From Centroscyllium fabricii (Eukaryota), in assembly GCA_051313645.2 (NCBI GenBank), contig JBNRSN020000015.1, positions 84,196,001 to 84,260,000 of the forward strand: 64,000 nt of DNA, read 5' to 3'. Under the pieces are notes generated by a model, which worked only from the letters and a program-made list of their open reading frames with translations, was not told the DNA's origin and did not search any database. Every line of letters starts with the position of its first letter. Position 1 is the stretch's first letter. Shown one piece after another: positions 1 through 64,000 of this stretch. The position numbers and the translations under genes are program-made.

Positions 1-38
1 CATTTTTGGATTTTAGCGACGATCTAAGTTTATTAAAT

Positions 39-308
39 TGATACCATCAATTACTCGAGTCAGAGAGCGAGTTAACATAGGCTTTAATAAACTTAGAACA
101 AGCGTAAGGGATCACAGGTATCGTTAGTACAGTACAGTAGAGAGGAGGTCAGAACCCACGAGTGCTGACCTTTATACCCCCCAGGGTCAGAGGCGTGGCC
201 TACCCGAGGTCCTCCAGGTACAGGTCTCCCATGTCTGGCTGGGCAAGAGTAGACACGCCCTAAGGCATGTACATACACATAGTTGGTGTTATAGCCAATA
301 TCACCACA
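39..308 (-). mobile_element. 5' LTR of a Gypsy LTR retrotransposon (element continues off the left edge; putative gag ATG at 3..1)
   Basis: Minus strand reads TGTGGTGATA...TATAAA...TTATTAAAGCC...GGTATCA, the same layout as the LTRs at 12729 and 59912, followed by an AT-rich leader and ATG. Confidence 0.75.
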
Positions 309-3379: not shown

Positions 3380-3679
3380 TGATGTATCGTCAATAGTCTA
3401 ATAAAACTAAAGACGCGTAGTTACCTTAACTATAGGCTTTTATTAGCTTACAAAGGAGCTACGCTCCGATTGAACATCAGGTACAGAATGAATGGGGGCA
3501 GGTCAGTCCCCACCTATAAGGCACTCACCTGAGGGGAGGAGTTAGAGGTGTGGCTGACCTGACCCCACGACAGTGTCGCAATACAGGACAGTTGTGTCAT
3601 GCACTCGGCCGCTATACATACAAATAATATTGGTAACAATATTAAGGTGGTAATAAGAGTACATATAACGGTTACCACA
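3380..3679 (-). mobile_element. Solo Gypsy LTR related to LTRs at 59912 and 61021
   Basis: Minus TGTGGTAACC...AATAAAAGCC...GACGATACATCA; 5-bp TSD GTGTG/GCGTG. Confidence 0.85.
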
Positions 3680-10588: not shown

Positions 10589-13110
10589 TCAGGTTTTGAT
10601 GTTAAATTGTGCTGGTGGAATGGCTGTGCAGAGCGGCGGAATTGAAATGATCACGATGTTGTAATTGTTCTTAATGTTCAATAAAGTATATTAAAGAAAA
10701 AGTGGGTAGCACACTTGCCTCTGAGTCAGAAGGTTGTGGGTTCACGTCCCAGTCCAGCTAAGTTGACATTCCAGAGCAGTGCTGAGGGAGTGCTGCACTG
10801 TCTGAGGTGCCGTCTTTCATATGAGACGTTAAACCAAGGCACTGTCTGCTCTCTCAGGTGGACGTGAAAGGCACCATATAAATGCAAGTCTTTCATTCTT
10901 TTCTTACTGAGTTGTACTTAAATCTTTCAAGGGATTGTTTGGTTTAAATAAGGTTTTGAAGAACAGGTTGAGCAGTGTAAGATGTATCCATCAGTTAAAT
11001 GTTAAAACAACACTTATTACTGCACCATTGCAAAGCTGAAAAGGTTTATTTCTAAAACTATTAATCTGACCACTGATTATCAATAAAATTAAGGCAATAA
11101 ACTTGATGTAAGCCAAGCTTGCAACTCATCTTCTAAGTGATATTCTATATTGACTCTCATAAATTAACCAACTCCTGAAATAGAGCCCCATATAAATATA
11201 TCAAGTTACCATAATCTTCTATTCCATTCTAAAAGAAGATACATTTCTTTGTACTTTACTGACTGTTTTAGCATAAAACAATAGGATTTTACCTAATTTT
11301 AATATCCTATATAATCAGTAGATGGTCCTGTTACTCTGTGTTCTTATTGAAATCCTTTCACCTATGCTGTGGCTTACTTAAAGTAATGCTTCTGGTGTTG
11401 TCTACTGATACTCTCACTTAATTTACACAAGATTTAGTGTATGTGTAATGTAATATCTATTATTATAACCACCTTTCTGTGTAACTTTCAACATGTTATG
11501 GTTATTGTCTATAATAGTCATCCTGACTGTTAAGTTAATGGGATAGATCCACTTATCCAACAAGGGTTGTAAAATAATGATGGATGGTCGCAGCTTTATT
11601 CTTACCCTATAACAGGGTAACATTCAACACTGTCGAGCAATGATATTCATCAACTGAGTGCCCAGTGGACCATGGCTGGAAGGTGACCCTCTGCACAGTC
11701 AAGAATGAGTATTTATTAGGCACACGGTCAGTCCATATGTCAGTGATAAAGTGAATAAATCCCATTCTACATCTTTTATCTGCGGAAGCACTTTATTTTC
11801 TACAGATGGATAGGTATTTGAAATAATTGGATGTGAAAAGTGAAATCTGGAAGAAATAGCATATCTGGTTTGGAAATAATTAATAAATGCCAGGCATCTT
11901 GAATCCTATACAATAACATGTGGATGGAGGTTAGGAGCTATTTTTGCCCCAATCAACAGTGTAATGTTGGTGGTTGGCTTGCAGAGAATTTGGGTACAGG
12001 TTTAAAGACAGTCAATTGTGATTTCCCCTTCTCTAAGTAAATGCCTTGAAAACTGTAAAGTGATGAAAAGTGAACATAAGAAACCATATGGAGGATAGCA
12101 ACAGAGTTCATATTAATTACTGTACAACTGGTAAAATTAGCATTATAAGAGCCAAGGCTTGATAAATTGCCATTATACTAAGAGCTTGGGTCAAATTTCT
12201 ATTTTTGTCCCCCAAAACGTCACCATCAAAATTACCGACACTCCAATCAATTCTATAGGATGAAAACAGAACAGTTAATGTGACGGCACAATCATACAAT
12301 GTCTATTTTTCTTACTTTTTCCCACCAATATGAACAAATTGCAATCAGTTTATCATAAGATATGAGTTTAAATAATTACGGACGAGAGAAGTTGTTTGCT
12401 CTGCTTATTTTAAATGGGTTAACTATTTTGTTATAATAGTGAGCAGAGGAATGTCACCATAGCATGCTTACCAATTTGTTAAAGATAATGCACAGAAGAA
12501 TTCTTACCTGGAAATGTTTATGCTATGAAATTTGTAATTTTTGATGTTAGTGACAGTATCTTTGTTCCGATTACTTCCACTGATGCTTAAAGTAATTCTT
12601 TGCATTAGCCATGTTAAAATATTTATATTCCAACATAACAGAAACACAGAAACACAGAAGATAGGAGCAGCAGTAGGCCATTCGGCCCTTCGAGCCATTT
12701 TGACAAGATCATGGCTCATCATCCAAACTGTGATAAACTATAATCTGTGCATTTATCACTCATCGTGTTGTATATAATAGGGAACCATAATCTGTACATT
12801 TATCACTCATTGTGTTGTGTATAATAGGGGTGACTCACTTTGCCTGAGACTGTATGTAAATATGTTATGTGTGACTCACCCCAGGTAATGTGATCACGTG
12901 GCCCAACGGACTTCGCCCTTAATTCCTCCCCTCAGGACAGGCTTATAACCTCTGGTTCGCCACCTGAGGGCCAGATTCGTACCGAGCTCTGTTGGACCAT
13001 GTCTAGTTCTAAGATATAATAAAAGCCTTTAATTACTTTCATAAGACGGCCTCCGCTAGCAGTTATTCGTGCTTTAATTTTATTATATCTTTGTTATTTT
13101 CTGGACAACG

Positions 13111-13900
13111 ATGGAGAACATAACATGGTTGAAACCAAAAGTGCTCGACCTCAGGGCCCCTGGCGCTGGCGAGGACATTCAGCACTGGCAGACCATGCTC
13201 GAGGCCTACTGCGCCCTCACCCCAGCTATGAAGGAGGAGCAGAAACTGATCATCCTGCGTTCACGGGTCACTGGCAGAGTGTTCTCGTTCATCCAAAAGG
13301 ACACCACGTTCGATGCCTCCATCGCAACCCTTCGGGACCAGTACATGAGGCCTATTAACGATGTCTACGCCAGGCATCTACTGGCCACACGGAAACAGCG
13401 ACTGGGTGAGTCGATTGAGGACTTCGCTCAAACCCTGCGAGCACTCGCCCGAAACTGCACTTGGCCCACGACCAGTACCACCGCCGCCTATGAGAACGAT
13501 ATGGTGCGGGACTCGCTGGTTTCAGGCCTGCGATCGGAGCAGGCCAGGGAGCGACTGCTGGAGCAGTCGGAATTGACTTTAGATGGAGTGGTTAAGCTGG
13601 CGAATGCTGTTGAGGTGGCAGAGAACATTCCAGCGCTTATTCTAATAACGGCGCTAACGCGGGAGAGCTAAACCGCTGGGGCCTAGCACCCCAAATGCCC
13701 GCCGACGACTGAGCACACGTCACCTCCGCGGCGGCCCCTCCGCCCCGGCATCCACAGACTTGCTACTTCTGTGGTCAAGCAAAGCAAGCCAGACAGCAAT
13801 GCCCGGCCAAGAGCGCTACGTGCACCAACTGCAGAAAGAAGGGGCACTACGCGAAGGTCTGCCGTTCCGGCCTAGCCACCAAACTGCAAGGAGCAGCGTG
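13111..13900 (+). pseudogene. Gypsy gag with zinc knuckles
   Basis: ORF 13111-13671, then CYFCGQ...CTNCRKKGHYAKVC near 13760-13862 after disruption. Confidence 0.85.
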
Positions 13901-14229
13901 TGACACGACGCAGGTACGACCCAGCGCAATGTTCAAGCGGCCCACCGCGAGCCCCCCACAAACACCATCTTTGCCAGCCACGTGCGAGACCCAGCGGGCG
14001 CCGCCATCTTTGTCGCCATGCCTGCCGGTGGTAGCCGCGTGTGAGGAGCTCCGGGCGCCGCCATCTTGGGCGCCATCTTTAGAAACCGCCACCACATGCG
14101 TGATGCAACGGACGCCGCCATCTTGTACGCCCGCATCCACTGACTTCGGTCGATCGGCTCGGGGTTCCAGCTGTCCCATCCAACACCCCCATACCGTCAC
14201 GGCCTCATCACTCGACCAGTCGAGGCCCC

Positions 14230-17051
14230 GCTCGCTTGCGCTGTCCACTGTGCACATCGAGATCAATGGGCAACCCTTTGACTGTTTGTTTGACACCGGC
14301 AGCACCGTGAGTTTTGTACACCCTGACACCGCGCAATGCTTGTCGCTGGTAATACGGCCCTCTCAGTGCCAGATCTCCCTGGCTTCCATAACTCAAACGG
14401 CGGACGCCACAGGGTACTGCACGGTTGCCCTTACAGTCAATGGGGCCCAGTTCCGGGATTTCCGCCTATACACCCTTCCTCAACTTTGCGCTCCGGTGTT
14501 GTTAGGGCTTGATTTTCAGAGCCACATGAAAAGCGTCACCATAGTCTATGATGGACCGCTGCCTCCCTTCCCCATCGGCAGCCCCGCGGCCCCGACCTGT
14601 GGCTTGTCGGCTCTCAAGTCGAGCCCCCCTCTCTTTTTGCCAACCTCACGCCGGAGTGCAGGCCGATAGCAACCAAAAGCAGGCGGTACAGCGCATCAGA
14701 CCGGGCCTTCATTAAATCCGAGGTAGAGCGGCTGTTGCAGGAAGGCATCATTGCCGCCAGCAACAGCCCCTGGCAAGCGCAAGTGGTTGTAGTCAGGACC
14801 GGCGCCAAACCGCGCATGGTCATTGACTATAGCCAAACGATTAACTGGTTCACGTTCCTGGACACCTACCCCCTTCCACGTATAGCTGATATGGTCACGC
14901 AGATCGCCCAATACCGGGTCTTCTCGACCATCGACCTAAAATCGGCGTAGCACCAGTTGCCCATGAGGAAGGCAGACCACCAATACACTGCCTTTGAGGC
15001 GGCAGGCTGGCTGTATCACTTCCTCCAGGTTCCATTTGGTGTTACGAACGGGGTGTCAGTTTTCCAGCGTACAATGGACCGGATGGTCGCTAAGTTCGCC
15101 CTCACAGCTACTTTTCCCTACCTTGACAATTTCACGATCTGCGGCCACGATCAGCAAGATCACGACGTGAACCTGCAGAGATTCCTCCGGGCAGCGGAAC
15201 GGTTGAATCTCACCTATTACTGGGACAAATGCTCCTTCTCCACCACCCGTCCGGCCATCTTGGGCGACGTGGTGGAGAATGGCGTCCTGGGTCCCGACCC
15301 CGAACGCATGAGCCCTCTCCAAGAGCTGCCCCTGCCAGCTAATTCGAAAGCCCTGAAAAGGTGTTTAGGGTTCTTTTCGTATTACTCCCAGTGGGTGCCC
15401 CAATATGCGGACAAGGCCCGGCCACTCCAATAAGCCACCACCTTCCCACTCCCGGCCGAAGCCCACATGGCATTCGCGTCCATCAAACGCGACATTGTCA
15501 AGGCGGCTACGCAGGCCATTGATGAGTCACTCCCCTTCCAGGTGGAGAGCGACGCGCCTGACTTCGCCGTGTCCGCCACCCTTAACCAGGCAGGCCGGTC
15601 CGTCGCCTTCTTCTCTCGCACCCTCCAAGGCCGCGAAACCCGACACTCTTCCGTCGAGAAGGAGGCCCAAGCCATTGTGGAGGCCGTCCATTACTGGTGC
15701 CACTACCTGGCCGGGAAGCGTTTTACCCTACTCACCGACAAACGTTCGGTAGCGTTTATGTTTGATATTAAACAGCGGGGTATGATTAAGAATGACAAAA
15801 TTCTTAGGTGGCGAATCGAACTCTCCACCTATGAATACAATATTCTGTACTGGCCTGGTAAGCTCAATGAGCCCCTGGACGCCCTATCCTGGAGTACATG
15901 CGCCAGTGTACAGATCGACAAATTACGAGCCCTCCATGACATCCTCTGCCACCCTAGGGTTACGAGGCTCGCCCACTTTGTCAAATCCCGCAACCTCCCC
16001 TACTCTATAGAAGAGATTCGGTCCATGACCAAGGAGTGCTCGGTTTGCGCAGAATGCAAACCCCGTTTTTATACCCCGGACCGAGCACGCTTGATCAAGG
16101 CCACCCGACCCTTCGAGCGTCTGAGCATCGACTTTAAGGGTTCCCTCCCCTCTGCTGGCCGGAGTACGTATATCCTCACGATGGTCGATGAGTACTCCCG
16201 GTTCCCCTTTGCCTACCCCTGCCCAGACATGACCACCATGACGGTCATTAAATGCCTCAATCTCTCTTCGCCATGTTTGGCTTCCCCAATTACGTCCACA
16301 GTGACCGGGGGTCGTCATTTATGAGTGGCGAGCTGCGCCAGTTTCTGCTCCAGAAGGGGATTGCCTCGAGCAGAACCACCAGCTACAATCCCTGGGGAAA
16401 TGGACAGGTGGAAAGAGAGAATGGGATGGTTTGGAGGGCCATCACTCTAGCTCTCAAGTCTAGAGGTCTCCCAACCTCCCGGTGGCCCGAGGTACTACCT
16501 GATGCGCTTCACTCTATCCGCTCGCGTTTGTGTACAGCTACGAACTGCACTCCTCACGATGCCCTGTTTTCTTTCCCCAGGAAATCGACCTCTGGGACAC
16601 CGCTCCCGATGTGGCTGACCACCCCGGGACCAGTTTTGCTTAAAAAGCATGTCCCAGGCCATAAGACTGATCCCCGAGTCGAACGGGTACATCTGCTTCA
16701 GCAAATCTGCAATACGCGTATGAGTTGTCCCCGGACGGCCGGGAGGACACGGTCTCCATCCGGGACCTGGCCCCCGCGGGGATCTCGACTGAGGAGCCCC
16801 GGCCACCGCCCGCCCCCGACACCACCCCCGGCGCATACCCATCATACCCCGGCCTGTTCCAGCCCCGGCCTGCCCGCCGCTTGGTCAAAGCTTGCCCCCC
16901 GCTAGAACCCCCTGACTCTGACTCGACCTGCGAACCGCCCCGCCGAGAGCCGATGACGCAGGCCGACCCACTACCGGCACCCCCGCCGCCGCAGCCAGCC
17001 CTTCGTTGCTCTTCAAGGACCATTAAGCCTCCGGAGAGGCTCAACTTGTGA
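14230..17051 (+). pseudogene. Gypsy pol (protease, RT, RNase H, integrase), disrupted
   Basis: LFDTGS, IDLKSA, YLDN, ESDAPDFAV/SVEKEA, HPRV..CSVC, IDFKG, SDRGSSF, NGQVERENG; several stops and frameshifts. Confidence 0.95.
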
Positions 17052-17818
17052 CTATGGGGCCCACTGAAGGACGATGGGGAGGGGCATTCACCCCGCCGGA
17101 CTCAGTTTTTAGAAAGGGGTGAATGTGATAAACTATAATCTGTGCATTTATCACTCATCGTGTTGTATATAATAGGGAACCATAATCTGTACATTTATCA
17201 CTCATTGTGTTGTGTATAACAGGGGTGACTCACTTTGCCTGAGACTGTATGTAAATATGTTATGTGTGACTCACCCCAGGTAATGTGATCACGTGGCCCA
17301 ACGGACTTCGCCCTCAACTCCTCCCCTCAGGACAGGCTTATAACCTCTGGTTCACCACCTGAGGGCCAGATTCGTACCGCGCTCTGTTGGACCACGTCTA
17401 GTTCTAAGATATAATAAAAGCCTTTAATTGCTTTTATAAGACGGCCTCTGCTAGCAGTTATTCGCGCTTCACAAACCCAGCACCCCCCTCCTACCCTCTC
17501 CCCATATCCCCTGACACCCCCAACTCTAAGAACTATATCTCACACACATACTCATGGGCAATGTTTACTATCTCCAATTCACCTAACCTGCATGTCTTTG
17601 GGTGGTGGGAGGAAACCGGAGTACCCGGAGCAAACCCACATGAACATGGGGAGAACATGCAAACTCCATGCAGAGAGGTCCTGGTCCAAGCAGGATTCGA
17701 ACCCAGGAGCTCCTTAGTGCGAGGCAGCAGTGTCATCCCAACTCCAACAAAGAAATGTAAAAACCATGGAGAACATGTTCCTCTGCTTACTACTTTAGTG
17801 AATAAGTATATGCAACTA

Positions 17819-26904: not shown

Positions 26905-29900
26905 TGTCATAGATGGAATTCTCCTTTAAGGATTCCATCTTTGAATTCTGGTGTTTAATTCATTTATTACCTTGTTTTCTTGTAAATTACTGCTAATTGT
27001 ACCTCGTTTATCATTTGCATGTATTGGTGGGACAGAGCTGGTCAATCTAATTGGCTGGAGCTGTATATATGCTTTGGGTTGGCAGCTGGAGGTTGCCGGA
27101 TCGTTATTTTCTGTTACTTGATATCTGTGTTCGGTTGCTACTCTCTGTTCCTGTCGTATTGGATTTCTACCTGTTACAGAGGAATTGGATGTACTGCTGA
27201 ACTCAGTGCTGGAATTCATCCCTTCGGTGAAGCGGATTACTTGGAGTTGATCGGTTCCTAGTATTGGACTTATTTCTGTTTATCACCTGAACTCTGGTTT
27301 GGACTTGTTAATTACTATTACCAGTACTCTGGATTATAGACTTGTTTATCCTCTGTTGAACACTGCTGTTAATGACTGTATATATATATATATATATATT
27401 TGAGGACTCAGAAATAAAAGGGTTTTATTTCTAAAGACGGACTTCCGGTGTTCTGCATTTGGGCCCTACCACAAACCCTTACAGAACGATCCGGCCAGAA
27501 ATGGACCCAGCAGAGACACTGAAGCATCTAGAACACCTCGAGGGCGCCCTATTTCACCAGGGGCAGACCTTGATGAATATTTGCACTCGGATGGAGCAGT
27601 TTACCGCTGCCTGGAACCTGCGGGTAGCGTCGGATTCGGCAGGGGTCCCGCTACCACCACCTCCGGCTCCAGAAGGGGGGTTGGCACCCATGCCTCAACT
27701 ACTAGCTCTCACACCCGAACCCCGAGTCGGGGTACCGGAACGGTATGCCGGTGAACCCGAGCAGTGTGATCCTTTTCTCACAAGCTGTTCCATCCTGTTT
27801 TCTTTGCAGCCCCACACCTTTGCCAATGGGAAGGCAAGGGTAGCGTTTGTAATCAATCATCTCACAGGAAGAGCCCGGCTTTGGGGAACCGCTGAGTGGG
27901 AGAGAGATACTCAGGCTTGCTCTTCTTTCGAGGCGTTCTCCACCGAATTAAGAAGGGTGTTTGGCAGGGTGTCCTTCGGCTCTGAAGCAGCTCGGGGACT
28001 CATGAATCTGAGCCAGGAAAATTAGACAGTGGCTGATTATTCTATTGACTTTCGAATCAGGGCTCGTCGGAGTAATTGGAACCAGGCTGCATTACGTGAG
28101 GTTTTTCTTCATGGCCTTTCTGAATACATCAAGGATGAACTGGTCTCCTACGATCTTCCTCCCACCTTGGATGAACTAATTTATCTTGCCACCAGGATCG
28201 ATCTTCGGATCCAGGCGTGTCGACGTGAGAGACGACTGGGAACGTCTGGTCGACATCCGCCGAGTCGGACTCAAGAGGTATTCATGGCACCCAGAGAGAC
28301 TGTGATAGCAGGGTCAGAGCCAGTGGGCCCCGAACCAATGCAGTGGGGTCGCACTCAAGGGAGATTCGTGGCGCCCAGAGATACTGCGACAGCAGGGGCA
28401 GAACCAGGGGGTCCAGAACCAATGCAGTTGGGTCGCACCAGTCTTCGGTTGGCGAAGCATAAGGGACCACACTCACCAGTCAATGGAGTCGTAATGGTGA
28501 GCCGAACTCCTGCTGGACTCTCTTCCAATCCACGACCCTTGTGTCAAGCCAAACTTCTTCTCCCCAGGGGATCCCAGACTCTCGTCATCTGTATTGACTC
28601 GGGAGCGGACATCAATATCATCGATGAGGATCTGGTCACGCAACTGGAGATTGACCGGGTGCCACTGCCACAGCCGGTTCCTGTCAACGCCTTAGACGGC
28701 CATCTCCTGGGAACGGTGACACATCAGACCTCACCTGTTCTTATGCTTCTGTCCGGGGATCATCAGGAGAGCATTCAGTTCCATATCTTGAGATCACCTC
28801 GGATTCCGTTAATTCTGGGACACACTTGGCTTCGCCACCACAACCCTCACATTGACTGGAACACGGGAGCTATTTCGGGCTGGAGTCCCTCCTGTCACCA
28901 GGTCTGTCTGAAACAGGCTCGGACTTCGTTGCTTCGCTCGACGGACCGATACCCGCCTGCTGCCAACCGTCGTCGTTCTGGGGCCCCTGAAAATCAGGTT
29001 GGACAGAAGGGGTGGCTCCCTCCTCCTCGTGAGCTCCACGGTGGGTTGGTCTACACTGTTCGTCACCTACTTCGTTCCCGTCATCATGGGATAGGACTTC
29101 AGTACCTGGTGGACTGGGAGGGGTATGGTCCAGAAGAGAGGTCCTGGGTTTCTGATCACCACATAATGGATCTGCAACTCATTGACGACTTTCACTGGAG
29201 GCACCCCGACCAGCCAAGTAAGAGGACTGCGAATCATGAGGAGTCTGGACAAGTGATCGGCTCCATACAGTTCCAGGAGAGCCTGACCGAGGAGGAGGAA
29301 TCTGCTGATGAGGAAGAATCTGCTGATGAGGAGGATTTCTTTCAATCTGATGATGAGATGGACATAGAGGAGGGCTTCGAGGACTATTAGTTTCTCCCCC
29401 GCACCCCTCCACCCACCCGATCCGGCATTTGGGGTTTTGGGACGTCAGGAGTCGTCCATTGAGGGGGGGGGGGTTCTGTCATAGATGGAATTCTCCTTTA
29501 AGGATTCCATCTTTGAATTCTGGTGTTTAATTCATTTATTACCTCGTTTTCTTGTAAATTACTGCTAATTGTACCTCGTTTATCATTTGCATGTATTGGT
29601 GGGAAAGAGCTGGTCAATCTAATTGGCTGGAGCTGTATATATGCTTTGGGTTGGCAGCTGGAGGTTGCCGGATCGTTATTTTCTGTTACTTGATATCTGT
29701 GTTCGGTTGCTACTCTCTGTTCCTGTCGTATTGGATTTCTACCTGTTACAGAGGAATTGGATGTACTGCTGAACTCAGTGCTGGAATTCATCCCTTCGGT
29801 GAAGCGGATTACTTGGAGTTGATCGGTTCCTAGTATTGGACTTATTTCTGTTTATCACCTGAACTCTGGTTTGGACTTGTTAATTACTATTACCAGTACT

Positions 29901-30059
29901 CTGGATTATAGACTTGTTTATCCTCTGTTGAGCACTGCTGTTAATGACTGTATATATATATATATATATATATATTTGAGGACTCAGAAATAAAAGGGTT
30001 TTATTTCTAAAGACGGACTTCCGGTGTTCTGCATTTGGGCCCTACCACAAACCCTTACA
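26905..30059 (+). mobile_element. Young non-autonomous sushi/chromovirus-type LTR retrotransposon
   Basis: LTRs 26905-27483 and 29477-30059 (3 substitutions plus a TA-repeat length difference by eye), TSD CCAAG, G-run PPT 29461-29473. Confidence 0.96.
27501..29390 (+). pseudogene. Gag-protease-chromodomain fusion ORF with one in-frame TAG (28023-28025); no RT/RNase H/integrase core
   Basis: PERYAGEP..CDPFL (sushi/PEG10-type capsid), IDSGA protease, [16 protein letters not shown] chromodomain, acidic tail; ORFs 27459 and 28029 share a frame. Confidence 0.88.
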
Positions 30060-59911: not shown

Positions 59912-61020
59912 CGTGGTAACCATTGTATGTCTACCATACCGCTGTACCACTATGGCTAATGATGGGCTGTGCAGATGTTAGGCACAGCCCTGTAAACTGT
60001 GACACTGTTGGGAGCCAGGTCAGCCACACCTCCAACTCCTCCCCCAGGTGAGGCCCCGTTATAGGTGAGATCTGACCGAGGCTCCTTCATTCCTGTACTG
60101 TAGTTCGTCTGGAGAGTAGCTCCGTTCTTAGCAATTAAAAGCCTTTAGTTTCGGTAACTACGCGTCGACTCTTTTAATCGAAGATATTGACGATACGTCA
60201 ATTTTAATTGCTAATTATTTTTAAATGGAGAGCAGCGCAGTTAAACCTGAGAAGCTGGACATCAGTCCCCAGGACCCTGCCACTGCCGCCACGTACGAAC
60301 ACTGGTTCGGTCTACTGGAGGCCTACATGGACGCCGCCAAGGCTACAACAGACAGGGACAAGCTGCATGTCCTACGATCGAGGATCTCCAGCAGGGTATT
60401 CACCCTCATCAGGAACGCCTCAACCTACTTAGCGGCTGTACAAATTCTGAAGAAATGTTACGAGCGCCCGGTCCATTCAGTCTACGCCCGACATGTGCTG
60501 GCGACCAGATCTCATCTACTGGGTGAGTCCAATGAGCAGTTCGAGCAAGCGCTCCTGGCCCTGGTACGGGTCTGTGGCTGCAAAGGCACAACAGTTGAAG
60601 AGGAGGAAGAACTCCTCGTTCGGGACGCTTATGTTACAGGACTGAAGTGTGTGGAAGCCCGCCAGCGGCTACTAGAGAAAGACGAATTATCCCTCGAGGA
60701 GGCGACTAAGATAGCCAAATCAGTAGAGGGGGCCCGAAGCAAGTTACAGGCATACAGCGGCACTAACCCGCAAGCCTACAACATATGAGCCGCGCCACAA
60801 CAGGCCCAGGCCTGGGCGCAACGGGTCGAGGCCCCCACGATGGCCGCGACGGCCACTAAAGACACTAAAGACAAGCGCTGCTACTTCTGCAGCCAGGGAC
60901 TGCACCCAAGAGCGAAATGCCCAGCCAGGACGGCGACCTGCGAGAAATGTGCGAAGAAGGGACACTACGCTAAAGCCTGCAGATCAGCCCCAGCAGCGCC
61001 CAACTCAAGGTACAACAGTG
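59912..61020 (+). mobile_element. Gypsy element: 5' LTR (59912-60200) and gag (from 60225), interrupted by a related element
   Basis: Gag similar to 13111; CYFCSQGLH..CEKCAKKGHYAKAC knuckles. Confidence 0.9.
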
Positions 61021-64000
61021 TGACGTATCGTCAAGGTCTTCAATTAAAAGAGTCGACGCGTAGTTACCGAAACTAAAGGCTTTTAATTACTAAAGAACGG
61101 AGCTACTCTCCTTACGAACTACTATACAGGAATGGATGGAGCCTCGGTCAGACCACACCTATATCGGGGCCTCACCTGGGGGAGGAGTCGGGGGTGTGGC
61201 TGACCTGGCTCCCAGCAGTGTCATAGTAAACAGGGCTGCGCCTAACATCTGCACAGCACATCATTAGCCATGGTGATACAGTGGTAATATAGCTGTAAGA
61301 CGGTTACCACACTCACCCCTTCTTAAAAACTTTGAGTCCGGGGGGGTGAATGGATCGAACAGTTCATAATTAATCTGGCCGGCGGTCGTGTCTGCCTGGA
61401 GGACCGCCGGAGCTCCGGTGTTGGTGGTGATGCCTCCAGGGTCGAATAGCCCGCATCTGCCGGCGCTGTGACTTCAGGTGGCGGTGGGCTCGGCTGGTCC
61501 CCGCCGTCCGGGTCTCAGTCGGGGAAACTCGGGGGCCATCTTGCGTCTGGTGGTTGAACGACCTGCTGGCCCGCAGGGGGCGCTGTGGTGGTGTTTCCGG
61601 CAGGGGCCAGGTCCCTGATGGACACGGTGTCCTCACGCCCGTCTGGGAACTGCACAAAGGCGTAGTGCGGGTTCGCGTGTAGGAGCTGTACCTTGTCCAC
61701 CAGGGGGTCCGTCTTGTGGCTCCGGACGTGCCTTTTAAGCAAAACCGGCCCCGGAGTCGTCAGCCATGGAGGGAGTGCTGTCCCCGAAGTCGACCTCCTG
61801 TTAAACGAGAAAATAAGATCGTGCGGGGTGGCGTTAGTAGCAGTACATAACAGTGATCTGATAGAGTGCAGCTCATCTGGGAGGACTGCCTGCCAATGGG
61901 ACACTGGAAGGCCTCTGGACTTCAGAGCCATGGTGACCGCCTTCCAGATAATCCCATTCTCCCTTTCTACCTGGCCATTCCCCCGGGGGTTATAACTGGT
62001 CGTTCTGCTCGTGGCAACCCCTCTCAGGAGCAGAAACTGGCGCAGTTCATCGCTCATGAACGATGACCCCCGGTCGCTATGGATATAGCTGGGGAGACCG
62101 AAAATGGCGAACAGCGTGGTGAAGTGTTTGATCACCGTTGCGCTCATCATGTCTGGACATGAAGGCGAAGGGGAAGCGGGAGAACTCATCCACTACCGTG
62201 AGGAAGTATGAGTTGCGGTCGGTGGAAGGGAGGGGGCCTTTGAAGTCCACGCTGAGACGTTCAAAGGGGCGGGTGGCCTTGATGAGGTGCGCCGTGTCTG
62301 GCCAGAAAAAGTGGGGTTTGCACTCGGCGCAGACAGGGCACTCTCAGGTTATAGCCTTGATCTCCGTGATGGAGTAGGGGAGGCTACGGGATTTGACGAA
62401 ATGGGCGAGTCTGGTGACACCCGGGTGGCAAAGGCGGTCGTGGAGGTCCTTCAGCCGGTCTAGCTGGGCACTGGCGCATGTTCCCCTGGACAGTGCGTCT
62501 GGGGGTTCGTTGAGTTTGCCTGGTCGGTAAAGAATGTCGTACTCGTAAGTCAAGAGTTCGATCCGCCACCGCAGGATCTTATCATTCTTGATTTTACCCC
62601 GTAGTTTATTGTTAAACATAAACGCCACCGACCGTTGGTCGGTGAGCAGGGTAAAACGCTTACCGGCCAGGTAATGTCGCCAGTAGCGCACGGCCTCCAC
62701 GATGGCCTGGGCCTCCTTTTCCACTGCTGAGTGGCGAGTTTCGTGTCCCTGTAAGGTGCGGGAGAAAAACGCTACGGGCCTGCCTGCCTGATTCAGGGTG
62801 GCAGCAAGGGCAAAGTCCGAAGCGTCGCTCTCCACCTGGAAAGGGATGGATTCATCAACAGCGAGCATGGTCGCCTTGATAATATCTTCCTTTATCCTTG
62901 TGAATGCCATTTGGGCTTCTACAGAAAGGGGGAAGACGGCAGCCTTGAGGAGTGGTCTAGCCTTATCTGCGAACTGTGGGACCCATTGTGCATAATAGGA
63001 GAAAAATCCTAGACATCTCCTCAAGGCTTTGGGGTTCTGAGGCAGGGGCAGTTCTTGCAAGGGTCGCATACGCTGCGGGTCGGGGCCGAGGACCCCGTTC
63101 TCCACCACGTATCCGAGGATGGCGAGCCGGGCTGTATTAAAGACACATTTGTCTTTGTTATACGTGAGGTCTAGCTTAGCCGACGTGGCGAGAAACTTGG
63201 CCAGATTGGCATCGTGGTCCTGCTGGTCGTGGCCGCAGATGGTCACATTGTCCAGGTAAGGGAAGGTGGCCTGCAAGTAATTTTGGTCGACCATACGGTC
63301 CATCTCCCGTTGGAACACTGACACTCCGTTGGTCATGCCAAAGGGGACCCGGAGGAAGTGGTAGAGCCGACCGTTCGCCACGAAGGCGGTGTAGGGGCGG
63401 TCGGCTTTCCGAATCGGGAGCTGGTGATACGCCGATTTAAGGTCGATCGTAGAGAACACCTTGTACTGGGCGATCTGGTTTACCATTTCTGAGATGCGGG
63501 GAAGGGGGTAGGCGTCGAGCCCGGTGTAGCGGTTGATAGTCTGGCTGTAATCGATAACCAGCCGCTGTTTTTCCCCAGAATTAACCAGTACAACTTGGGC
63601 ACGCCAGGGGCTGGTGCTGGCTTCAATAATCCCCTCCTTCAGCATCCGCCCGACCTCCGACCTGATAAACGTGCGATCCCCCTCACTGTACCGCCGACAT
63701 TTAGTGGCAATGGGTTTGCACTTTGGATCGAGATTGGCGAACAGCGAGGGGGGGTCGATTTTCAGGGTGGAGAGGCCGCAGGCCGGGGTCCACTTTGGGG
63801 GGAGATTGTCCCGGTTACTGAGGGTGAGGGGGGGTAAGGTCCCGCCGAACTCCATTGTCACACTCCTGAAGTGGCACTGGAAATGCAAACCTAGTAAGGC
63901 TGGGGCACACAACTGTTGGAGGGTATACAATTTAAAATTACGGTACACGCGCCCCTGGACGGTGAGCGTGACGGAGCAGTAGCCGGTGATGTCCGCGGTG
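61021..64000 (-). mobile_element. Gypsy element 3' half: pol, PPT (61312-61328) and 3' LTR (61311-61021)
   Basis: LTR similar to 59912-60200 in inverted orientation; PPT AAGAAGGGGTGAG. Confidence 0.95.
61370..64000 (-). pseudogene. Gypsy pol (protease end, RT, RNase H, integrase) with a stop at 62344 and frameshifts
   Basis: 534-aa ORF with YLDN, ESDASDF, HPG; integrase IHSDRGSSF, NGQVERENG. Confidence 0.95.

Follow-up and report, generated by a model that had tools for sequence, protein, structure and literature searches.

A Ty3/Gypsy clade without a tRNA primer site in Centroscyllium fabricii likely primes reverse transcription with a 52-nt 5' fragment of its own RNA

The locus and its retrotransposons

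The window, the whole stretch of DNA analysed here, covers 64,000 nucleotides of Centroscyllium fabricii (GCA_051313645.2, contig JBNRSN020000015.1, positions 84,196,001 to 84,260,000 of the forward strand). Near its right end lies a plus-strand retrotransposon whose gag is interrupted by a nested minus-strand relative (Table 1). The limits of the plus-strand 5' LTR are supported by the flanks of 30 copies; this LTR begins with CG, most copies begin with TG, and no clear target duplication of the element's own was found. Beyond the nested relative the plus-strand element resumes at L032:3719 and ends in a second LTR (L032:6843-7131) that is 96.9% identical to the first and is followed by no complement of the kind described below.

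Table 1. Features of the window (positions are those of the 64,000-nt stretch)
Feature	Position	Strand	Basis or remark
5' LTR of plus-strand Ty3/Gypsy element	59912..60200	+	289 bp, ends CGTCA
TATA-like box	60060..60063	+	motif 80-86 nt before arm end in 10/11 arm variants of this genome
Initiator-like TCATTCC, putative transcription start A60089	60087..60093	+	ends of over-extended copies
Putative 52-nt self-primer (5' RNA fragment)	60089..60140	+	same 52-nt spacing in 12729 family (12973-13024)
Small predicted hairpin just 5' of paired arm	60110..60124	+	MFE and centroid fold
Upstream arm TTAGCAATTAAAA	60128..60140	+	contains poly(A) hexamer ATTAAA, 60134-60139
GCC behind putative cut 60140/60141	60141..60143	+	cut itself putative
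Second, LTR-internal complement CTTTTAAT of hexamer region, competing helix	60171..60178	+	sequence
Predicted hairpin at U5 edge, stacked on primer helix	60187..60201	+	predicted fold
Single spacer base between CA of LTR and primer-binding site	60201	+	
Primer-binding site (PBS), complement of arm, 1 nt after CA, no TGG	60202..60214	+	sequence
gag, two CCHC motifs, one in-frame stop	60225..61020	+	ATG 60225; interrupted at 61020
Left copy of 5-bp target duplication CAGTG of minus-strand element	61016..61020	+	
3' LTR of nested minus-strand relative	61021..61312	-	arm TTTAGTAATTAAAA at 61094-61081
pol of minus-strand element: protease end, RT (YLDN), RNase H, integrase	61515..63999	-	no chromodomain match
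Element of second family of same clade	12729..17469	+	TATA 12944, putative start 12973, arm 13011-13024, PBS 13078-13091
Third family of clade	23..97	-	15-nt arm 97-83, complement 37-23
Chromodomain element without RT, Tf1/sushi geometry, internal contrast	26905..30059	+	11-nt arm 27095-27105 about 30 nt after TATA, PBS 27485-27495

Pfam matches give the order gag, then PR-RT-RNase H-integrase, which is that of Ty3/Gypsy, and the solved structure nearest to pol is the Ty3 RT (E 6e-49). The TG...CA LTRs, a polypurine tract and the short target duplication also agree with Ty3/Gypsy. No Chromo match was found in the integrase ORF, nor among the Pfam domains for the 120 listed homologues out of 732. 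Judged by its sequence, the element is a Ty3/Gypsy retrotransposon that has neither a chromodomain match nor a tRNA site.

The 732 homologues score at E 1e-100 or better. Names among the 120 listed include two rays, which are the closest named relatives among them, together with Actinostola, Mytilus, Ischnura and Trichuris; corals and a jellyfish were added from homologue cluster members, and a viral contig collection yielded no relatives. RT trees place the fold-back elements together on a single long branch, with SH-aLRT 91 in a quick tree of 42 rows and 100/100 in a more careful one of 15 rows. Their RT shares just 28-31% identity with the RTs of other elements in this genome (chromovirus, CsRn1-type and Mag-type; 29% for the chromovirus and 28% for the Mag-type elements). 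The best tree separates the clade from the single chromovirus sampled, and with this sparse sampling a tree joining them is not rejected (p-AU 0.21). The clade and the Mag-type elements fall on the same side of an 87/82 branch in the unrooted 15-row tree, at the 28% identity already given. Except for CsRn1, the clade labels of these outgroups (e.g. Mag-type) are presumptive, being assigned from motifs. Two CCHC motifs in gag are a Mag trait, and membership in Mag, which the gag suggested, was considered and dropped. The clade has no TGG after the LTR; the Mag-type controls have it. The TGGTGAC site of the CsRn1-type element matches the one described in PMC3587641.

Two further observations concern these coding regions. 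The active-site motif of RT is YLDN, not YxDD, in the minus-strand element (62347-63999, minus strand) and in many relatives, and YLDD in others. A copy elsewhere in this genome (L196:3895-5121) has LTRs that are 100% identical and an RT 58% identical to that of the window; the RT groups with a metagenome contig and not with the families of the window, its arm resembles those of metagenome relatives, and recent horizontal transfer is possible.

A fold-back junction in place of a tRNA site

The preliminary description had drawn attention to a perfect 13-nt pairing between 60128-60140 and 60202-60214, just before a gag start codon at 60225. The two segments are indeed exact reverse complements, and the ATG opens the gag ORF. 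A perfect 13-mer complement occurred in none of 20,000 shuffled LTRs (at least 12/13 in two), and a fold-back of at least 13 in the register one base past the terminal CA (CA+1) in none of 20 shuffled windows. Exact junctions of a single subfamily number 7,501 copies in this genome.

The same description noted TTAGTAATTAAAA in the 3' LTR of the minus-strand element at 61093-61081, which is correct, and from it predicted a 5' LTR junction of TTAG(T/C)AATTAAAAT-TGACGTATCG to the right of the window. That LTR lies at L032:3428-3718 (window-equivalent 73428-73718) and is 98.6% identical to its 3' partner, and the CAGTG target duplication flanks the element on both sides. The junction reads TTAGTAATTTAAAT-TGACGTATCG, which agrees at 23 of 24 bases, has the T variant and departs from the prediction by one substitution. 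The T at the variable position sets the element's own LTR apart from that of its neighbour. The junction has no canonical TGG tRNA site and its complement is present, and thus neither outcome that had been named as contrary was found. The distance was misjudged: the junction lies 9.4 kb past the right edge, not about 2 kb, because an ERV-like insert of about 7.9 kb splits the minus-strand gag, which breaks off about 2 kb past the edge. The reading implied by the prediction is therefore supported and holds across the clade: a tRNA site is absent, and what follows each LTR is a complement to that element's own LTR variant. In the two families examined, the arm appears to lie about 40 nt inside the RNA and not, as in Tf1, at its extreme 5' end.

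The ERV-like insert runs from L031:4455 to L032:3318 (window-equivalent about 65455-73318) and contains 630-bp repeats that are 97.7% identical, an RT fragment with YIDD, and a TGG site, which we take to resemble the 3' end of tRNA-Gln. The ends of its repeats appear to be AGTT and not CA, and its flanks showed no clear target duplication. Members of the fold-back clade are often nested in one another, and several more copies occur within 45 kb to the right of the window (L032, L034, L035).

The other instances reported for the window all exist, but the four are not of one kind. The one at 27095 has the classical Tf1/sushi geometry, and the ORF at 28026 matches Chromo. The element that contains it (26905-30059) encodes gag, protease and chromodomain but neither RT nor integrase. 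Its close relatives in the genome number at least 150, many with an open frame of 650 codons and some in tandem; this family is non-autonomous and keeps its coding frame. A solo LTR of a related subfamily at 3380-3679 (minus strand) has the arm TAAGCTAATAAAA and no complement after the LTR.

Covariation of arm and primer-binding site

Eight arm variants were found in this genome, each followed by GCC and each with its own complement one base after CA. The frequency of the arrangement among relatives comes from an unselected metagenome survey of 75 loci, in which 44 gag starts were located; three of these were too near a contig end, leaving 41 scorable loci. Pairing at 12 or 13 of 13 positions was found in 35 of the 41, with 30 of these in the CA+1 register, and pairing of at least 12/13 in 0 of 164 shuffled control regions. 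Four other loci score 11 with shifted fold-backs and two show none. The 35 pairing loci comprise 23 distinct arms, and many of the loci come from one assembly.

The pattern of pairing was analysed in 33 variants. These were hand-picked for showing a fold-back, and therefore the rate is taken only from the 41-locus survey. Positions 1-13 pair in 30-33 of the 33 variants, with up to four pair types per position, and pairing drops to 20-21 of 33 at positions 14-16 and to 6-13 of 33 beyond. Arms match their own PBS at 12/13 or better in 30 of 33 cases, compared with 24 of 1,056 cross pairs. The CA+1 register is fixed in 31 variants, and GCC or ACC directly follows the arm in 27. An AG is conserved as counted from the putative cut, with A at position 11 in 28 variants and G at position 10 in 30. 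One variant (L101) scored 8/13 because its arm lies at a contig edge; it is fully paired and was kept in the counts. Elements of other clades in the same genome served as controls: TGG sites are present in L217, L219, L220 and L192 (three Mag-type and one CsRn1-type), and the chromovirus L215 has an 11-nt arm of the sushi type about 30 nt after its TATA.

Fourteen copies were examined because of arm/PBS mismatches. In mismatch copies with both LTRs, the change is mostly in one place, either the 5' LTR (L221, L227, L230) or the PBS (L226, L228). In one case (L231), the arm is mutated in both LTR pieces and the PBS is unchanged, as expected if the LTR arms of progeny derive from the 3' LTR of the parent.

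Over-extended copies and the 5' end of the primer

Genomic junctions were searched for copies in which the complement continues three bases past the normal end, with the reversed pattern as control. The search found 107 such over-extended junctions and none with the reversed pattern, against the 7,501 normal ones (about 1.4%). End-points were mapped for the 100 copies listed of the 107. Nearly half (48) stop at LTR positions 176-182, 30 of them exactly at position 178, which corresponds to A60089. This A lies in TCATTCC, 29 nt after the TATA at 60060, and we take the TCATTCC at 60087-60093 to be initiator-like. Another 12 copies stop at positions 185-212 and only 4 between positions 4 and 175 (at 40-169); 17 stop at the limit of the search pattern itself, mostly in a subfamily with a 16-nt site. 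The other 19 run through U3 to the LTR start, and 7 reach the polypurine tract and in some cases pol.

The 48 copies continue into 18 different onward junctions. One onward junction in gag is shared by 29 of them, which may descend from few events, and these were counted as one class; on this count, 18 of the 34 junction classes between LTR positions 4 and 213 fall within the 7 bases. The 12729 family has the same A at TATA+29 (12973) and the same 52 nt to the arm end, and among its 9 over-extended copies one stops at 12973 and another 5 nt short of it. No non-templated C of the kind left by cap copying is evident at 60089 among the mapped copies. A TATA at this spacing is seen in few metagenome relatives and is absent in most, and the length of 52 nt may therefore be particular to the families of this genome. 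Over-extended chromovirus copies gave 0 matches, in a weak control whose pattern came from one copy and whose denominator was uncounted.

These end-points are most simply read as the product of a reverse transcriptase copying a template that began with base 60089 and had its base 52 against the LTR edge. Since 48 of 100 copies stop within 7 nt, and 30 of them at an initiator A 29 nt after a TATA, the primer is likely to be a 52-nt 5' fragment of the RNA. What these stops map is the 5' end of the RNA, and an identical trace would result, with no covalent primer involved, if a nascent plus strand annealed to the 5' end of an intact RNA. Even under that scheme the start site would be fixed, and no primer but the element's own R can pair with the site.

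Two unusual classes of copies deserve mention. The 29 copies that share the gag junction (L237, L241, L242 and 26 others) carry a 52-nt fold-back that leads into gag at a point about 160 nt from its start, with at least three gag variants; the junction is either a recurrent template-switch hotspot or the mark of a non-autonomous subfamily with a 52-nt primer site. Near-palindromic inserts (L258, L299, L301, L305, L306, L321, L326) consist of a whole LTR, an inverted U3-R and a second LTR start.

The putative cut site

Among fold-backs that run through U3 and have a truncated upstream LTR piece, 8 of 13 pieces start between -13 and +6 of the putative cut, an interval that was chosen after seeing the data. 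These comprise 4 of 9 in the first family and 4 of 4 in the second, and two start exactly at the cut (L314, L271). When LTR pieces beginning at the putative cut were sought by an unselected pattern test, no excess was found at LTR position 230 over control position 236. The 12 matches at 230 were made up of 6 unrelated inverted-repeat insertions, 5 local mutations and 1 relevant junction, and about 9 of the 19 matches at 236 had foreign upstream DNA. The inverted-repeat insertions are MITE-like and look like six separate events at the same GCC site of the LTR (L344, L346, L348, L350, L353, L355).

Predicted folding and the poly(A) signal

The arm-PBS helix is present in the predicted MFE and centroid folds of both leaders in the window. 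Whole-leader folding energies showed no excess stability over shuffles (z of -0.8 and -1.1). In a copy with a mutated PBS, the competing helix at 60171-60178 wins the predicted fold. The arm includes AATAAA or ATTAAA in 22 of the 33 variants, and the predicted fold leaves no base of the hexamer unpaired; the helix would therefore hide the poly(A) signal of the 5' LTR. Compensatory changes preserve the helix in variant L132, which lacks a hexamer; in L099 and L135 an AATAAA occurs apart from the arm, 26-28 nt downstream of it. These three variants make masking unlikely as the main role of the helix.

Alternative explanations

Self-priming in some form is very probable, and the alternatives that retain it differ in where the primer comes from. 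Under the exact mode of Tf1, the RNA would start at the AG 11 bases before the cut and furnish a fully paired 11-nt primer, and the TATA start would be minor or secondary. The conserved A at position 11 and G at position 10 would fit such a start, as would their (Y)TAGT context, which we take to be initiator-like, and most metagenome relatives have no TATA at -80. The primer of Tf1 itself is 11 nt long, as described in PMC7175516, and the 11-nt geometry may be the true one in invertebrate members of the clade. Against this mode, covariation extends to pairs 12 and 13, at each of which four pair types occur, and the duplex therefore includes bases upstream of the AG; furthermore, the over-extended copies of this genome continue to 60089 and stop there, and a TATA-like motif at -80 to -86 is found in 10 of its 11 variants. 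We consider the exact Tf1 mode unlikely for these reasons. Somewhat less likely again is priming by the 3' copy of R, in which the RNA would circularise, be cleaved behind the same hexamer, close to its 3' end, and prime there. The 19 copies that pass through U3, including the 7 that reach the polypurine tract, are what this scheme would produce. That class fits a plus-strand strong-stop hairpin as well, or the annealing of this strand to a second RNA, and the 48 copies that stop at the putative start do so at a position that is an end only in the 5' copy.

The helix might instead serve mainly to mask the 5' LTR poly(A) signal, forming only at the 5' end, with some other primer in use. The hexamer in 22 of 33 arms and its complete pairing in the predicted fold speak for such a role, but no TGG or other conserved site remains for another primer, the CA+1 register is fixed in 31 of 33 variants, and L132, L099 and L135 separate helix from hexamer. 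On balance this explanation too is unlikely. Chance complementarity of AT-rich sequence, or local inverted duplication, can be dismissed: the arms are AT-rich, and the window has other inverted repeats of this length in unrelated repeats, but the shuffled LTRs (0/20,000) and control regions (0/164), the 23 distinct arms in 35 loci and the prediction borne out beyond the window refute it.

Proposed mechanism

The reading that we prefer, with a probability of roughly 0.7, is that this tRNA-less Ty3/Gypsy element primes with a cut-off 52-nt 5' piece of its own RNA, the last 13 nt of which are paired to the PBS. Start, cut and primer are all deduced from DNA. Transcription would begin at A60089, as the copy end-points and promoter motifs suggest. 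RNA bases 40-52 would then pair with the site after U5, a step for which complementarity and covariation are seen and the helix is predicted. The RNA would next be cut after ...UUAAAA and before GCC, probably by the element's RNase H by analogy with Tf1. The capped fragment would prime synthesis of minus-strand DNA, which would run through the spacer base, U5 and the remainder of R and then jump to the 3' R. When plus-strand synthesis copies the primer back, it would rewrite the PBS from the LTR arm and so keep the two matched. Normally 13 bases would be retained, and more in about 1.4% of junctions, often up to the first base of the RNA. As a side effect, the helix would probably hide the poly(A) hexamer of the 5' LTR. 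A 5' primer by itself does not account for the 19 of 100 copies that extend through U3, of which 7 reach the polypurine tract.

A broader version of this model can be put forward tentatively, at somewhat less than even odds. A pan-animal clade outside the chromoviruses would have its own form of self-priming, in which an internal cut at a conserved AAA^RCC site frees a capped leader of considerable length, here 52 nt, and the final 13 nt of this leader act as both primer and poly(A) lid. The PBS would be rewritten in each cycle when the primer is copied back, and arm and PBS could thus drift freely together.

If these proposals are true, the over-extended copies are a genomic record from which the first base of an RNA can be mapped without RNA data. 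It would follow that a self-primer does not have to be the very 5' terminus of its RNA, which would raise the question of how RNase H selects an internal RNA-RNA site, and priming would be tied to the choice of poly(A) site. Such elements would also escape control by tRNA fragments and go unnoticed by annotation software that depends on a tRNA PBS. The predictions of the model are exact to the base: a start at 60089, a cut at 60140/60141 and a capped RNA of 52 nt.

Comparison with known systems

Self-priming is given in the description of some Gypsy entries in Repbase, and part of the present finding could thereby be anticipated. A literature search found no report of self-priming in a non-chromovirus animal Gypsy clade, nor of a long, partly paired self-primer; the mapping of a primer's 5' end by means of over-extended genomic copies is new here. 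Self-priming has so far been demonstrated for Tf1 and predicted mainly for its chromovirus relatives and one plant copia lineage, and the present clade, if correctly interpreted, would be a second, very abundant animal clade with a different geometry.

According to PMC6317226, Tf1/sushi elements are reported to self-prime, and the same is predicted of Tcn1 and of the TAR lineage of copia. The TAR/Houba/Osr-1 elements resemble the present ones in that self-priming is predicted from complementarity, but they are Ty1/copia elements of plants and thus an unrelated lineage, and the relevant passages of PMC6317226 do not give their primer geometry. The Mag lineage is alike in its two gag CCHC motifs. 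It also has short LTRs and a 5-bp target duplication (PMC3286476, PMC6238403). It differs in its tRNA PBS, for which mosquito Mag elements use tRNA-Leu, Ser or Arg (PMC3286476); in this genome the Mag-type elements carry a TGG site, and their RT is 28% identical to that of the clade. The Cigr-1 clade, widespread Ty3/Gypsy elements of marine animals, may be the same clade; the section of PMC6238403 that lists it in molluscs gives no PBS type. The homologues of the present element named above come from rays, corals, a sea anemone, a jellyfish, a mussel, a damselfly and Trichuris.

The closest parallels are with Tf1 and its relatives. Tf1 and Tf2 of Schizosaccharomyces pombe, Tj1 and Tf1/sushi elements likewise have no tRNA site and a PBS after the LTR that complements R, according to the descriptions in PMC7175516, PMC4600332, PMC5341516 and PMC6317226, and Tf1/sushi elements share the Ty3/Gypsy pol order and a predicted hairpin at the U5 edge. 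[quoted passage not shown] Instead of these fully paired first 11 bases, the present elements appear to have an arm of 13-19 nt at the 3' end of a putative 52-nt leader, and the arm usually covers a poly(A) hexamer. The start suggested by copy end-points and by the TATA and initiator motifs lies 39 nt upstream of the arm, in contrast to Tf1/sushi. Unlike the Tf1/sushi chromoviruses, moreover, the clade has no chromodomain match, its RT is 29% identical to that of the same-genome chromovirus, and in the best tree it forms a separate long branch. The element probably works like Tf1 and, departing from Tf1/sushi in two defining features, is not established as a member of that group.
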